A stretch of 63,476 bases of DNA, counting the filler, from Anaerolineae bacterium (lineage in GTDB: Bacteria > Chloroflexota > Anaerolineae > B4-G1 > DUEL01), in NCBI GenBank assembly GCA_041082215.1. It is 7 parts of 7 records of this genome, joined end to end, with 100 filler letters (N's around TTAATTAATTAA, not from the genome) between each part and the next. Parts side by side here need not be neighbours in the genome. Positions count along the whole stretch, not along the records: positions 11,758 to 24,514 come from JBDOIF010000003.1; 6 more parts are not named here. One strand, given 5' to 3'. The position numbers and the translations under genes were made by a program. Below are positions 11,760-24,514 of this stretch, one piece after another (position 1 is the first letter of the stretch; each line of letters begins with the position of its first letter). The notes beneath the pieces are model-generated. The model saw nothing but the letters and a program-made list of their open reading frames with translations. It was not told where the DNA came from and did no database searches.

Positions 11760-12689
11760 CTCAGCGACGGCGGTCAGTTCTACGTGCTGGGGACCAGCCT
11801 GAGCTGCCTGGATGCAGCCTGCAACAGCGTGGCAATCAACACAATCTTCGTTGACCCCCTCACAATGAGCCAGTCATACAGCGCCATCATCCTGCACTGG
11901 GATCAGTGGCCTGACCACCCCACTACACCTTCCGCTAGCACCCCGACCTCCGTCCCGCCGACGGGCACTCCTCGTCCCACCTCCACCCCTCACCCCACGG
12001 TGACGCCGATGCCGACGCCGGTGGACTGCCCACCGGAGAGCATTTCGCAGCGGCCACCGACGGTAGAAACGCTCAGGATATGGCCTCCCAACCCGGTTGT
12101 GAAGGGGCAGGGCGGGCAAGGATTGAGCCTGACGGTGCGGGTGACCAGCTATCCGGTCATCCACCGCTGGTGGACGCGGGAGGAGCGGTCCACCACCGAA
12201 TGCGCCTGGCACGGGGACTCCACAACGGGACAGCCCGATGAGAGCGTCTGCGAATGCACGCCGGACGGGAGCGAAGGCTGCTGGCCGGGCTGGGGGTGGG
12301 AGACCACCAGCGAGTGGTACTGCCAGGAGCACGTGGAAATCATCCCCGACCCCATCCAGGCCGGCGCTTTCCAGGCCCACGCCCGGCTGCACAAGACGAG
12401 CAAAGAGTGGATTCAGACCAACCTGGCAAGCAAGTATCCGGGGGCGCGGGTGCGTCACCCGGACTGGGACGTGCAGGGCCAGCCGAATGCCGGCGGCTGC
12501 CTGGGCGACGGGCGCTGCATCCTGGAGACCGTGGCGTACTTCCCCTTCGAGGACCCCGGCTGGTACACGATGTGGGTGGACGGCTGGACGGTGGGGACGC
12601 GGTACACCCCGCCGCGGACGTATCACTACAACCTGCCCGATCCCCAGCCGGTGTACCTGATGGACACAACGCTGATCCCGGACTGGTGA
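11760..12689 (+). CDS. Probable exported protein (5' truncated): Pro/Thr linker and Cys/Trp-rich C-terminal domain
   Basis: Frame is open from the contig edge; PTPTSVPPT linker; several Cys; TGATG coupling to the next gene. Confidence 0.75.
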   Translation, partial: LSDGGQFYVLGTSLSCLDAACNSVAINTIFVDPLTMSQSYSAIILHWDQWPDHPTTPSASTPTSVPPTGTPRPTSTPHPTVTPMPTPVDCPPESISQRPPTVETLRIWPPNPVVKGQGGQGLSLTVRVTSYPVIHRWWTREERSTTECAWHGDSTTGQPDESVCECTPDGSEGCWPGWGWETTSEWYCQEHVEIIPDPIQAGAFQAHARLHKTSKEWIQTNLASKYPGARVRHPDWDVQGQPNAGGCLGDGRCILETVAYFPFEDPGWYTMWVDGWTVGTRYTPPRTYHYNLPDPQPVYLMDTTLIPDW

Positions 12690-13372
12690 TGGACGTATTG
12701 ACTGCCGTCGGACGGTTTCTGCTGGACCTGGTGCTTTACCTGGTCAACGGATTGCTGGAAATCCTGTACCAGGTCATCGGGCACCTGGCGGTGCTGGTCG
12801 GGCTGATCTGCGGCCTGGCGATACTGCTGGTCTTCGATGTGCTGGCGCAACGGCTGGCGGCGGCGGCCCCCGCCCGCCAGGGTCAGAAGCCGTCCCTTCA
12901 GGTCAGCCGTCACCACCAGGCCCTGACCGTGGCTACCATCCTGGCCTGGCTGGTGGTGGGGCTGGCCTTCCCCACGCCGGTCCCCCAACTGGGGGCGGCG
13001 ATGTGGGGGCTGACCATCCTGGCCCTGCTGCTCATCCCGGCAGAGCAGGTGGCCATCCTGTGGCGGAGCAAGGTGGCCATCCTGTCATACTGCGGCCTGC
13101 TGGTGGCTTTCCGGGTGGTGGCAGCCTGGACGCTGGCAGCGGACCCCAGGGAGTGGGCGGCAATTATCGGGACGGTGGGGGAGGCGCAGCGGGTGGTGGC
13201 CTCCAGCCGGGGGCTGGTGCTGACCATCGCCTCCTACGTCTCCTGGTTTGCCATCCCCGCCGGGTACGTGGTCTATCTGTTCCAGAAGGCGACGACGCAT
13301 CCGATGAGCCTTCGCAACCCGCTGGCACGGGCCAGCGAGGTGGCCTGGCAGATTCGGCAGCGTCCTGATTGA
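12689..13372 (+). CDS. Multi-pass membrane protein (227 aa), function unknown
   Basis: About 5-6 TM segments; start MDVLTAV overlaps the upstream stop. Confidence 0.8.
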   Translation: MDVLTAVGRFLLDLVLYLVNGLLEILYQVIGHLAVLVGLICGLAILLVFDVLAQRLAAAAPARQGQKPSLQVSRHHQALTVATILAWLVVGLAFPTPVPQLGAAMWGLTILALLLIPAEQVAILWRSKVAILSYCGLLVAFRVVAAWTLAADPREWAAIIGTVGEAQRVVASSRGLVLTIASYVSWFAIPAGYVVYLFQKATTHPMSLRNPLARASEVAWQIRQRPD

Positions 13373-13386
13373 ACCTTTCCAATCGG

Positions 13387-13619
13387 CGGCAACTGACCGC
13401 TGGCCCCACATCGGGGGCGGTCGGTGTGGGTGTTGGGGCGACCCGCCGGGTCGCCCGTACAGGGGTTGCCGGGTGGCCCTGGGTGTTTCTCCGGTCGTGC
13501 CCGGGCGCACAGAGACGCGCAGAGGGGACGACAGACCCAGACGTGGCGCGAGGGGAGCCGGGCGCCGGCTCAAGACCCGGGCTGCTGTGAGCACACACGG
13601 CGGTCGGGGTCTTGAGCCG
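13387..13619 (+). ncRNA. Candidate structured intergenic RNA or ssDNA element with at least 4 hairpins
   Basis: Stems 13392-13400/13417-13425, 13436-13444/13448-13456, 13479-13484/13535-13540, 13566-13578/13607-13619; several G.U pairs on the + strand. Confidence 0.4.
13432..13460. repeat. REP-like palindrome
   Basis: GTTG-GGGCGACCC-GCC-GGGTCGCCC-GTAC resembles GTAG-type REP units; single copy in the window. Confidence 0.45.
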
Positions 13620-13646
13620 ACCCCATCCCCAGAAGGAGGTGTCGAA

Positions 13647-13928
13647 ATGTTGATGCACGACTGGAGGATCATCCTGGCCGTCATCCTGGTCGCTGCGGTC
13701 ACCGTCGCGCTCCGCCTGGTCGAGCGCCGGCGGGAACTCCAGGACCGAATGGCCTGGATGGCCGAGCTGGAGGCCCGTCAGCAGGACCGGGCAGAACGGC
13801 GAGAGCAACGGGACCGCGCCCAGAGCCCCAGCCCCTCCCTCCGGGAATGGCTGGAGGAGTCCGGCCTGTCCGACCGGCTGACAGTCGGATCGGACGGCCA
13901 GCTCCACGCCATCCGGGGAGAGTGGTGA
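13647..13928 (+). CDS. Small bitopic membrane protein with coiled coil (93 aa)
   Basis: Strong AGGAGGT RBS; N-terminal TM followed by a charged helix. Confidence 0.75.
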   Translation: MLMHDWRIILAVILVAAVTVALRLVERRRELQDRMAWMAELEARQQDRAERREQRDRAQSPSPSLREWLEESGLSDRLTVGSDGQLHAIRGEW

Positions 13929-13941
13929 CCCCCAGCACCAT

Positions 13942-14017
13942 CCGACCTGCGCGAGCAGGTCGGGCCTCTGCCCGCAACGCTCCATACCGTTGCGGGCAGA
14001 GACCGGACCTGATCCGG
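13942..14017 (+). other. Three abutting hairpins just before the ATPase start
   Basis: CCGACCTGC-GCGA-GCAGGTCGG; perfect 14-bp CTCTGCCCGCAACG/CGTTGCGGGCAGAG; CCGGA/TCCGG. Confidence 0.7.
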
Positions 14018-23322: not shown

Positions 23323-23326
23323 CAGG

Positions 23327-23776
23327 ATGGGAAGACGAACCGCAACGATCATCGCACTGACAGGTCTGGCCATAGCAGGACTGGCGTGCAGGCCGGGCAT
23401 CCCTGCCCCCTCTGTCCCGCCGGATGTGTCGGTGCAGCTTCGGGAAACCGCAGTCCCTGCTCACACCACGACCATCCAGGTCCAGGTGGAGCAGGTGGTT
23501 GTGCTGACGGAGACGGTCGTGGTGAGCTTCACCGTGTCCACAGCGGGAACACAGGCGCTCCTGTTCGATATGCCGGAGCTGGACGGGAAACAGCCCACAC
23601 CCGACAGCCTGGAGGCGGCCCACTTCGCATTGCTCGACCTGGCAACACGGGGGCAGGCTCAGGCTAGCCTGGAGTTTCCAAAGCCCGCCACGGAACCACC
23701 GTGGGCGCTGGTCTTCAACCCGCTGCACGAGCCGACCGACTACGTGGCCCCACGGGTGGAGGTGATGGTCCGTTGA
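23327..23776 (+). CDS. Lipoprotein, function unknown
   Basis: Signal peptide with LAC lipobox; beta-rich body. Confidence 0.7.
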   Translation: MGRRTATIIALTGLAIAGLACRPGIPAPSVPPDVSVQLRETAVPAHTTTIQVQVEQVVVLTETVVVSFTVSTAGTQALLFDMPELDGKQPTPDSLEAAHFALLDLATRGQAQASLEFPKPATEPPWALVFNPLHEPTDYVAPRVEVMVR

Positions 23777-23973
23777 ACAACAACTTGCTCCAGGATGTGA
23801 GAGACGTGCTCCGTCACATGCGGAGATTCCTTGCCGCTTTCCGGTATGGGGGAACATCCGACCTGTACCGGGAAGTGGAGCGGGTGCTCCGACTTGTGGA
23901 GCAAGTTTCAGCAGAGCCTGAACAGACCATGCTGCCCGGAATGGAGGGGCTGATCGTATGCGAAATGCAGTAG
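23773..23973 (+). CDS. Small hypothetical helical protein (66 aa, TTG start)
   Basis: GGAGGT RBS at 23758-23763; start overlaps the upstream stop. Confidence 0.5.
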   Translation: MNNNLLQDVRDVLRHMRRFLAAFRYGGTSDLYREVERVLRLVEQVSAEPEQTMLPGMEGLIVCEMQ

Positions 23974-24182
23974 CGGGGGGCAGGCTGATAGAGGCCGGAC
24001 CGGATGCGCCGAAAGAGGCACAGTGCCCTATCTGCGGTGGGCGGGTGCAGCTCCGCATCTACTGGGATATAGGCAGGAAGTGGCCTCATTGGGTCTATCG
24101 CCACAAGCAGGGAGAAGGACTGAACTGCCCGCGCAGAAAGACACGCAAAACTCGGTCTGCTGAGGAGGGTACGGGGAATTGA
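23958..24182 (+). CDS. Small zinc-ribbon protein (resembles the CoiA N-terminal zinc finger)
   Basis: CPICGGRVQLR...YRH...CP; GGAGG RBS. Confidence 0.6.
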   Translation: MRNAVAGGRLIEAGPDAPKEAQCPICGGRVQLRIYWDIGRKWPHWVYRHKQGEGLNCPRRKTRKTRSAEEGTGN

Positions 24183-24394
24183 ACACAGGAGAAGTGGTGG
24201 ATGCCCTCCTCGCCCTCGACGAGCCGTGGCGAAGCCGCTTTCTCAGGCTGACGGCCAGCATAGCCACCGGATGGTCCTGGAACGGGCGGGGAGAGCCGAC
24301 AAGAGAAGAGCTGGAGGAATGGCTGGAGAACCCGGGCCTGCGAAGGAGGGTAACGGTGCTGCTTCAAACCTGGACGGGCGGGAGATTGCCGTAG
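24179..24394 (+). CDS. Small hypothetical protein (71 aa)
   Basis: GAGGAGG RBS; start overlaps the upstream stop. Confidence 0.55.
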   Translation: MNTGEVVDALLALDEPWRSRFLRLTASIATGWSWNGRGEPTREELEEWLENPGLRRRVTVLLQTWTGGRLP

Positions 24395-24406
24395 AGAGGT
24401 GAAAGG

Positions 24407-24514
24407 ATGCGAGGTATAACTGCTGCTGCCATCGGCGCTCTGCTCCTTCTGGCCCTGGTTGTGCTTCTGCTGCCGTCGGGCGAGACCCGTCCGGCCCTGG
24501 CCGCGCCGGTCCGG
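24407..24514 (+). CDS. Secreted protein, signal peptide only (3' truncated)
   Basis: MRGITAAAIGALLLLALVVLLLPSGETRPALAAPVR; GAGGTG RBS. Confidence 0.6.

Follow-up and report, generated by a model that had tools for sequence, protein, structure and literature searches.

What does a pilus machine of the tight-adherence (Tad/Flp) type do when a large ATPase with a HerA/FtsK-superfamily motor is built into the same operon? The question is raised by a locus of an Anaerolineae bacterium (Chloroflexota; assembly GCA_041082215.1) that lies at positions 11758-24514 of the window, the whole 63,476-nucleotide stretch analysed here, and that is exactly one entire contig, C57, of 12,757 bp. We read C57, tentatively and with somewhat less than even confidence, as the central contact and DNA-export (transfer) module of a family of mobile and probably integrative elements in Anaerolineae-class Chloroflexota. 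The reading builds on observed gene content, conserved linkage and motor fold and, in relatives, on neighbouring mobile-element genes and recent passage from genus to genus; in those relatives both linkage and mobility are established, and the window's own copy may sit on such an element as well. The window joins seven contigs (C56, C57, C59, C60, C61, C63 and C68) with N spacers between them, and neighbourhood across a spacer has no meaning. The source genome (G000) is a metagenome-assembled genome (MAG) of 3.53 Mb in 174 contigs, 96% complete with 3.4% contamination.

All genes of C57 lie on the plus strand in one tight run (Table 1), with intergenic spacers of -4 to 39 nt except those between B and C (274 nt), C and D (96 nt) and K and L (181 nt); the spacer between the ATPase gene D and cpaB is 39 nt. 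An earlier reading made from the DNA alone, hereafter the sequence-only reading, had described a tight same-strand run encoding Cys-rich, multi-transmembrane (multi-TM) and bitopic proteins, an ATPase and Tad proteins, and annotation bears this out with corrections. Its DUF6941-like gene was rightly assigned to that family but wrongly placed, the open reading frame (ORF) 22040-22546 (168 aa) being rejected as a wrong-frame artefact of the gene listed in Table 1, and the three small proteins that it saw after the tadC region reduce to two clear ones, L and M, plus the cut gene N, whose ORF continues on contig C173. The exported protein A, without a match in Pfam, NCBIfam or the protein Atlas, is 43% identical to L006:2998-4104 in the closest relative, which starts with a hydrophobic signal-like segment. 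The Atlas holds just hypothetical Chloroflexota look-alikes of B, and the position of C is taken in 23 related loci by a family 10 gene (114 aa) of similar size and topology. Among the Tad components, every NCBIfam match of the CpaE-like protein falls under its cut-off, and CpaF matches the TadA-family model TIGR03819 at 4.9e-57 and 193.6 bits, under the cut-off of 373. The tadB and tadC calls are weak in the window itself and are made because T2SSF matches recur in homologues at the same positions (E ≤ 0.01 in 7 of 13 for tadB and 10 of 13 for tadC, with one above the cut-off in each case); BLASTP relates the window TadB to the canonical TadB of its own genome at E 0.006 and gives no significant match between that protein and the window TadC. 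K, L and M match no family in the library scans. No secretin (PF00263) is found in the whole 96%-complete genome, as the sequence-only reading had noticed for the locus, which fits a Tad variant of a monoderm cell. Promoter and terminator scans were at chance level (one found against 0.8 expected, and five against 4.4), and no Rfam family matched.

Table 1. Genes of contig C57, parts of the ATPase D, and spacers, in window coordinates.
Feature	Position	Strand	Evidence or remark
A, Cys-rich exported protein	11784-12689	+	10 Cys in 301 aa; 5' end cut, frame open to contig start
B, multi-TM membrane protein, 227 aa	12689-13372	+	several hydrophobic segments
C, small bitopic protein, 93 aa	13647-13928	+	one TM segment at residues 1-27, charged C-terminal tail
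D, 1154-aa 'serine-rich protein' ATPase	14025-17489	+	NF033849
D, N domain	~14121-14840		
D, Ser/Gly/Thr-rich hairpin insert	14880-15644		
D, HerA/FtsK-type motor	15645-17486		
cpaB/rcpC	17529-18470	+	RcpC 2.8e-10; SAF 4.9e-7; TIGR03177 82 bits, cut-off 71
cpaE/tadZ-like ParA/MinD-type ATPase	18472-19788	+	AAA_31 3.1e-10; CbiA 1.9e-9
cpaF/tadA secretion ATPase	19801-21120	+	T2SSE (PF00437) 3.8e-30, 105 bits, cut-off 24.9
tadB-like platform protein, divergent	21133-22050	+	T2SSF E 0.0085, 16.5 bits, cut-off 25.2
DUF6941 protein, 130 aa	22047-22439	+	PF22091 5.8e-16
tadC-like platform protein, divergent	22441-23322	+	T2SSF E 0.0023, 18.3 bits, cut-off 25.2
K, small exported protein, possibly lipoprotein	23327-23776	+	N-terminal hydrophobic segment ending in Cys
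L, small protein with CxxC	23958-24182	+	translation
M, small protein	24179-24394	+	translation
N, start of secreted protein	24407-24514	+	cut by contig end
N spacers	11658-11757, 24515-24614, 26026-26125, 28924-29023, 59235-59334, 60951-61050		

The ATPase D is a member of NF033849 (860.2 bits, E 1.8e-258, cut-off 650), a 'serine-rich protein' family (ser_rich_anae_1) that has a name and no assigned function and that comprises 337 representatives of 50%-identity clusters at E ≤ 1e-30 among the 1.84 billion representatives searched. This is its sole NCBIfam match; D matches no Pfam family at E ≤ 0.01, shows no effector domain and has no TM segment. An AlphaFold2 model built with 80 homologues (mean predicted local distance difference test score, pLDDT, 74.9) has two confident parts, an N domain (residues ~33-272) and a C-terminal part (541-1150), while residues 273-540 (pLDDT ~35) are drawn as four pairs of 20-30-residue strands, within which the insert (286-540, 255 residues) consists of 20% Ser, 16% Gly, 15% Thr and 11% Ala. 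In Foldseek searches with the whole model the C-terminal part matched HerA, Sir2-HerA, DndH-C and TdpA at 9e-11 to 5e-9, with the HerA chains at 9e-11 to 1e-9 and a probability of 1.0, and also TrwK/VirB4 (8e-9) and TrwB (1.5e-8), all these structural matches being at 13-16% identity. A profile of the 80 family members searched against PDB returned HerA/DUF87 chains only (best 7.8e-11) and no VirB4, FtsK or TrwB, and phmmer with D itself found nothing in PDB better than E 0.15. Walker A residues G727/K728 and Walker B residue E1007 are invariant across the 80 sequences, and of the VirB4/CagE/TraC models PF12846 matched one of the 120 D homologues listed. As judged from sequence, D thus belongs to the HerA clade and is not a VirB4: of the earlier label 'HerA/VirB4-type', the first half stands and the second fails against both the family models and the profile search.

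The two other parts of D are less telling. Folded alone, the N domain (pLDDT 71) has no significant fold match; TrwK/VirB4 chains make up seven of its top ten Foldseek rows, yet at E 0.05-0.17, and its VIA scores, Z 7.9 for ESX-5, Z 5-6 for folds of the type III chaperone/YbjN-like kind and Z 5.5 over 193 residues for TrwK, all lie in the range that the tool gives as noise. It matches no nuclease or Sir2 domain. The hairpin insert gave only composition-like PDB matches at E > 1 to pore-forming beta-barrel stems, from which we draw no inference. No NurA, Sir2 or DUF4297 partner was found among the neighbours scanned.

Support for the idea that D belongs with the Tad machine comes from its relatives. 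A scan of the genome collection gave 209 related stretches, of which 80 loci were kept for study, 75 of them labelled Chloroflexota, four assigned to other phyla (short MAG contigs) and one unlabelled. Linkage was counted by tblastn with the window proteins, in each case for loci having enough flank. B lies upstream of D in all 55 loci with at least 1.5 kb of upstream flank and A in 46 of 51 with at least 3 kb; in the 48 loci with at least 6 kb downstream, cpaB, the cpaE-like gene and cpaF follow in 39, 40 and 41, respectively, and the loci without cpaF are L012, L015, L021, L023, L030, L034 and L081. Linkage of the ATPase homologues to tad genes had been set beforehand as the check on which the sequence-only reading could founder; on these counts it does not.

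De novo ORF clustering in Anaerolineaceae-type loci gave a fuller order. It begins with a single-stranded DNA-binding protein (SSB), family 14 (bitopic coiled-coil) and family 11, followed by families 7, 13 (ribbon-helix-helix-like) and 6; then come A, B, C, D, cpaB, cpaE and cpaF, variable inserts (AbiE pairs, AAA ATPases), and finally tadB, tadC, a PEMT/ICMT-like methyltransferase, a 403-aa membrane protein, an A24 peptidase, a 48-aa Flp-like pilin, TadE and a TadG-like protein. Relatives have a hot spot for insertions between cpaF and tadB (L058:18306-19759, L036:17033-18547 and ~35 kb in Leptolinea, the last delimited by a 681-bp repeat of the 3' end of cpaF), where AbiEi/AbiEii pairs and ATPase_2/DUF234 ATPases occur, and in the closest relative (L006:14911-18746) a second set of ParA-like, CpaB, CpaF and 296-aa proteins stands right after tadC.

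The module is patchy and not core chromosomal in the relatives, a point that the sequence-only reading had set as a check. Of 301 genomes sampled from the class, 22 have an NF033849 match above the cut-off, as do two of the seven of the window's own family (G000 and G014), a count in which two candidates were scored per genome and some copies may escape; certain genomes carry two or three copies of the D locus. About a dozen class genomes also encode 930-1080-aa ORFs that match the motor part of NF033849 only, at E 1e-17 to 1e-40 (for example G180:C258:2186-3670, G187:C146:331-1797 and G135:C442:3121-4587), and that may be long HerA-type ATPases of a sister family further removed. VirD4-type coupling proteins (PF02534) occur in 3 of 121 class genomes.

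Mobility is seen in a comparison of four genomes, those of Flexilinea flocculi TC1, Levilinea saccharolytica KIBI-1, Leptolinea sp. HRD-7 and a Bellilinea-labelled MAG. Among them an 11.4-kb cassette running from family 7 to cpaF is 93.6-96.1% identical at the nucleotide level and its similarity stops abruptly on both sides, while the recA loci of the same genomes are 70.6-76.6% identical. Flexilinea and Leptolinea have ~20 kb in common in all, 91-95% identical against 74% for recA, including a further block of 8,333 bp (91.1% identical) with two small ORFs, ParA (99% protein identity), a 231-aa ORF, a DnaA_N protein, SSB and family 11. This block starts ~90 bp from the Flexilinea integrase gene, which itself lies outside it. 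The two shared blocks are 66 bp apart in Flexilinea and 13.1 kb apart in Leptolinea, where heavy-metal ATPase and ArsR genes intervene; these P-type ATPases and regulators, which separate the A-D cassette from the block with SSB and family 11 (L076:1-5440 and 19905-22586; genome 510-523 kb), look like inserted cargo. In Leptolinea, tadB, tadC and the methyltransferase gene stand ~38 kb past cpaF, after the 681-bp repeat. These alignments show replication, partition, SSB and nuclease-like genes moving between genera together with the A-D-Tad cassette, though not by what mechanism.

The surroundings of the locus in two genomes bear the marks of mobile elements. Upstream in F. flocculi TC1 lie an excisionase-family protein (36 bits against 28.8), a ParM/ALP-like protein, a DnaB-like helicase that matches NF040583 ('SPI-7-type island replicative DNA helicase') at 3.4e-26, under the cut-off, a tyrosine integrase (124 bits) and ParA, followed by a 731-aa DnaA_N protein and then SSB and family 11; downstream are TadE/G, an IS605 OrfB, a Rad52-like protein and RadC. 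On a 3.2-Mb MAG contig the locus follows polysaccharide genes, a NusG-like gene and two integrases and is itself followed by a DUF4143 ATPase, AbiEi/Eii, RadC, ArdC-N (1.5e-9), MNT/HepT and then housekeeping genes, with toxin-antitoxin pairs among the downstream set. The earlier suggestion of an integrative and conjugative element (ICE) or plasmid gains support in relatives from these two integrase contexts and the ~20-kb transfer; the locus of G102, described below, has no mobile-element genes nearby.

Family 11 (17 sequences) is one of the neighbours that suggest DNA handling. It has a coiled-coil N terminus, a winged helix-turn-helix (wHTH) and a C-terminal block with invariant D337, E350, E352 and K364, which at motif level resembles restriction endonucleases and makes the protein a putative nuclease. 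Its 26 database relatives are all 'hypothetical', and outside nucleases its profile reaches PDB entries of PadR/MarR wHTH proteins (E 0.008) and coiled-coil noise. Family 11 adjoins the D locus in all five large genomes, intact in three, pseudogenised in one and as a fragment in one. One MAG has three copies of the arrangement SSB-family 14 unit, family 11, LysM/CAP, 190-aa protein, A, B and D with no tad genes in the 8-10 kb downstream, where type III CRISPR genes, sensors or a STAND NTPase stand instead; because of these three Tad-free copies, the A-B-D unit appears to go with DNA-handling genes even without Tad.

The window's own genome contains counterparts of these neighbours on other contigs. 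C67 (5.3 kb) encodes a RepO-like protein (5.4e-6, just under the cut-off), a wHTH protein, SSB (2.5e-13), family 14, family 11 (PadR-type wHTH 3.5e-5; 55% identical to that of L006) and a LysM-CAP protein, and this is the gene order upstream of A in L006. C41 encodes a Peptidase_A24 (9.8e-7), a Flp_Fap protein (7.9e-5, under the cut-off), TadE (1.2e-12) and a TadG-like protein (Tad 1.3e-7), and synteny in relatives suggests that it would be linked to C57. C131 (L088) has a second pair of family 14 and family 11; over 50-140 nt, its last ~115 nt resembles sequence on ~20 further contigs (79-91% identity), a likely family of short dispersed repeats. A second, reduced module on C7 (115333-123262; L005:12034-19963) comprises genes for a B-like protein, D (1252 aa), a CpaE-like protein, DUF6941, a K-like protein and M, and no cpaB, cpaF or tadBC. 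The C7 D is 37% identical to the window D and scores 1178 bits against NF033849, and the DUF6941, K and M paralogues of the two modules are 38%, 50% and 83% identical. The ends of C57 and C7 have 165 nt in common (99.4% identical), and the final 147 nt of each is identical to the end of C173, where gene N runs on. The C7 module adjoins genes for HAD hydrolases and MurJ.

This genome has, in addition, Tad loci without D. One is canonical and stands on C65 beside the housekeeping gene plsX, with a REC-ParA CpaE, CpaF (T2SSE 4.8e-63) and TadB (T2SSF 2.8e-22); a third Tad set, on C1, likewise lacks D. In a phylogenetic tree the D-linked CpaF proteins form a 99/99 clade apart from the CpaF-like ATPases of C65 and C1, with the caution that long branches may meet falsely. 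The stretch itself is present in eight public DNA runs from two studies, all of them hot-spring metagenomes with no RNA run listed; contigs of those runs span the entire C57, and one record extends 916 nt beyond its start.

In our model two units would act together. The first is the divergent, secretin-less Tad/Flp pilus machine (CpaB, CpaE-like, CpaF, TadB and TadC), with the prepilin peptidase, Flp and TadE/G genes on another short contig of the genome. The second is the conserved set A-B-C-D of exported Cys-rich, multi-TM and bitopic proteins plus the cytoplasmic HerA/FtsK-superfamily ATPase with its hairpin insert; ahead of this set, relatives encode a replication-type protein, SSB, a coiled-coil protein, the wHTH nuclease-like protein (D..ExE..K) and a LysM-CAP protein that would bind the wall, and the same most likely holds here. 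The Tad pilus would make and then tighten cell contact, a ring of D would dock on B and C at the membrane, and this ring would pump element DNA from the donor after processing by the nuclease-like protein and coating by SSB. We favour contact plus DNA export as the function because the facts set out above fit a mobile module and because ICETh1 of Thermus thermophilus, discussed below, is the nearest working analogue. It is tempting to speculate further, although we consider this unlikely, that the locus represents conjugation machinery of a new class, which would be the first in Chloroflexota and would operate without VirB4, VirD4 or relaxase: the Tad pilus would join filaments, a HerA-clade ring would drive DNA cut by the wHTH nuclease and coated with SSB, and the 24 hairpins of a hexamer could form a tube through B/C and the wall.

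Several observations weigh against a contact and DNA-export module. C57 stands out only mildly in composition (GC 67.6% against 65.0%, among the top 8% of windows; tetranucleotide distance in the top 7%), and none of the four integrase genes of its genome lies on C67, C57, C41, C131 or C173, all short contigs; that C67 precedes C57 is most likely, on synteny only. In relatives, SSB, family 14 or family 11 occurs within 10 kb upstream in just 15 of 38 loci, and the nearest integrase is 58-117 kb away in three of the five large genomes. No tRNA genes were found in nine flanking loci, the presumed edges of the island in one genome share no exact repeats of at least 14 nt, and no att sites were defined; a congeneric synteny map used in search of an empty site showed ~75% identity and heavy rearrangement. 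The complete genome G102 carries A-B-D-cpaB-cpaE-cpaF-tadB plus a TadC-A24 fusion without mobile-element genes nearby: its flanks are defence genes and ABC transporters to one side and, immediately to the other, PSP1, holB, secE and znuABC, and there is no integrase, SSB or family 11 within 320-440 kb. The apparent fusion there is a 443-aa ORF at the tadC position (L100:14576-15907) with Peptidase_A24 at residues 308-395. The nearest nuclease to the family 11 profile in PDB scores E 0.2. Relaxase, VirD4/TraG and VirB4 families are absent from the Pfam hits of the window, L006, L020, L076 and ~60 kb around the locus in each of three genomes; the sequence-only reading had seen no relaxase or coupling protein either. 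A full fit to a described mating-pair formation class, which that reading had named as a refuting case, is not given by these hits, which lack VirB4, a type IV coupling protein and relaxase. The evidence for transfer between genera comes from relatives whose D is only 38-40% identical to that of the window, and horizontal transfer of a cassette is no proof that the cassette causes transfer; tad loci, the 'widespread colonization island', are known island cargo. Finally, we know of no Tad pilus that acts in conjugation.

The rival that we take most seriously, although it too seems unlikely, is an adhesion or aggregation island, in which Tad would be adaptive cargo and A-B-C-D lineage-specific parts for pilus or envelope biogenesis, with D, for instance, energising a surface structure through a thick monoderm envelope and no DNA being moved. 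The close coupling of D to cpaB in one operon and its recurrence in 39 of 48 loci, the G102 locus without mobile-element genes and the exported, Cys-rich nature of A, as is often seen in adhesins, would all fit, and VirB4, to which the motor is related, powers the assembly of pili and not the pumping of DNA. The conserved Anaerolineae Tad cluster with its highly transcribed pilin has, in the passages used here, been read as an organ of cell aggregation (PMC4877987). Such an island would leave it puzzling that the genome already holds a canonical Tad locus without D, that three copies of family 11-LysM/CAP-A-B-D have no tad genes nearby, and that the cassette takes SSB and the nuclease-like protein along when it passes from genus to genus. 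Characterised members of the HerA/FtsK family mostly move nucleic acids, which also counts against it. Protein rather than DNA might instead pass through the machine, D and Tad exporting A or other proteins to neighbours or to the envelope upon contact. A, K and N are indeed exported products of the operon, and the best folds for the N domain, none of them significant, come from secretion systems (ESX-5 at Z 7.9, type III chaperone-like folds at Z 5-6 and the VirB4 N domain at E 0.05); these matches are within the range of noise, however, the signal-like N termini of A, K and N would imply the Sec route, and the linkage to SSB and the nuclease would go unexplained, so that we give contact-dependent protein delivery very little credence.

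DNA might also travel inwards, the Tad pilus capturing it and A-B-C-D with SSB importing it as a competence system on a mobile element, for which Ced/Ups in Sulfolobales and Tad-dependent transformation in Micrococcus are the comparators. SSB and a nuclease-like protein would be at home in such a system, and the layout of a multi-TM protein, a small bitopic protein and a HerA-type ATPase parallels CedA/CedA1-2/CedB as described in the part of the literature account drawn on here (PMC11868833). Uptake systems are, however, usually core genes of the host, whereas this module is patchy and mobile; ComEC and ComEA families were not seen among the scanned neighbours, and the co-travelling replication and partition genes fit a self-spreading element, which together make uptake improbable. 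Least probable of all, to our minds, is a HerA-based defence or anti-defence system, like Sir2-HerA or DUF4297-HerA, that merely happens to be placed in a tad locus. The best structural and profile matches of D do include Sir2-HerA, DUF4297-HerA, DndH and TdpA, and AbiE, BREX, GmrSD and type III CRISPR genes are often nearby. Yet no effector domain is recognised in D, its N domain matches neither nuclease nor Sir2, and D keeps its place, after the membrane proteins and before cpaB, across dozens of genomes, unlike the contents of shuffling defence islands.

If the contact and DNA-export module is a vehicle, it would add a route of Tad pilus and HerA motor to bacterial DNA exchange and give NF033849 and DUF6941 a function; if it is only a pilus accessory, it would show a Tad machine rebuilt for a monoderm, sheathed, filamentous cell. 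F. flocculi TC1, Leptolinea sp. HRD-7 and L. saccharolytica KIBI-1 are cultured carriers, which makes the question testable. A literature search, which subscription journals lay outside, found no description of this ATPase family, of its tad linkage or of a Chloroflexota conjugation system, and to our knowledge no conjugation system has been described for Chloroflexota.

The remainder of the window lies on other contigs. RecR (10790-11389) and an IS110 transposase (after 24614) were rejected as neighbours of the locus for that reason, and ORFs that span spacers, such as 24407-24562, are artefacts. The transposase, of the IS110 family (DEDD_Tnp_IS110 2.7e-21), lies on C59 (24615-26025, 1.4 kb), and C60 (26126-28923) encodes a PMT_2/DUF2142 membrane glycosyltransferase; neither has a link to the locus.

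Among known systems, the Tad/Flp (type IVc) machines of Caulobacter (Cpa) and Aggregatibacter (Tad) provide the template, with CpaB, CpaE/TadZ-like, CpaF/TadA and TadB/TadC in the usual order and with the A24 peptidase, Flp, TadE and TadG-like proteins elsewhere in the window's genome; the window's system differs in lacking a secretin, in its very divergent TadB and TadC, and in having a 1154-aa HerA-type ATPase and A, B and C built into the operon. Xia et al. 2016 described the conserved, highly transcribed Tad cluster of Anaerolineae as an aggregation organ, in text passages that make no mention of a large ATPase (PMC4877987). The modelled D would resemble VirB4 in pairing an alpha/beta N domain with a C-terminal FtsK/HerA-superfamily motor, but VirB4 has no 255-residue Ser/Gly/Thr hairpin insert and D has no VirB4 family match. 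Its multi-TM and small bitopic neighbours recall VirB6 and VirB3/8. The R64 thin pilus and the PAPI-1/SPI-7 family of ICEs show that conjugative elements may encode pili, there of type IVb, while moving DNA by a full type IV secretion system (T4SS) with VirB4, VirD4 and relaxase. Relatives of the window's locus similarly have an element's own type IV-class pilus next to ParA, a DnaB-like helicase and SSB, but no such T4SS was found in the scanned contexts. Streptomyces TraB and the actinomycete integrative and conjugative elements offer a filamentous multicellular host, an integrative element with Int, Xis and Rep, and a single FtsK/HerA-superfamily pump without relaxase. TraB, a protein of the FtsK clade with TM helices, conjugates double-stranded DNA and needs no pilus, whereas D lacks TM segments and comes linked to a Tad machine. 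Closest in kind is ICETh1, on which, in the parts of the account used here, TdtA, a HerA/FtsK-family hexamer, and the adjacent nuclease NurA donate DNA with no T4SS involved, and the recipient's part is played by a competence machine of the type IV pilus kind (PMC5365140). It has in common with the present system a HerA-clade ATPase and a nuclease-type protein on an integrative element, the involvement of a pilus-type machine and the lack of relaxase and T4SS. On the same partial account, TdtA has 568 aa and neither the serine-rich insert nor a D-type N domain; the nuclease is NurA and not a wHTH/D..ExE..K protein, and the pilus machine is the recipient's competence system and not encoded by the element. 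We regard the system of C57 as known kinds of parts in a new combination.

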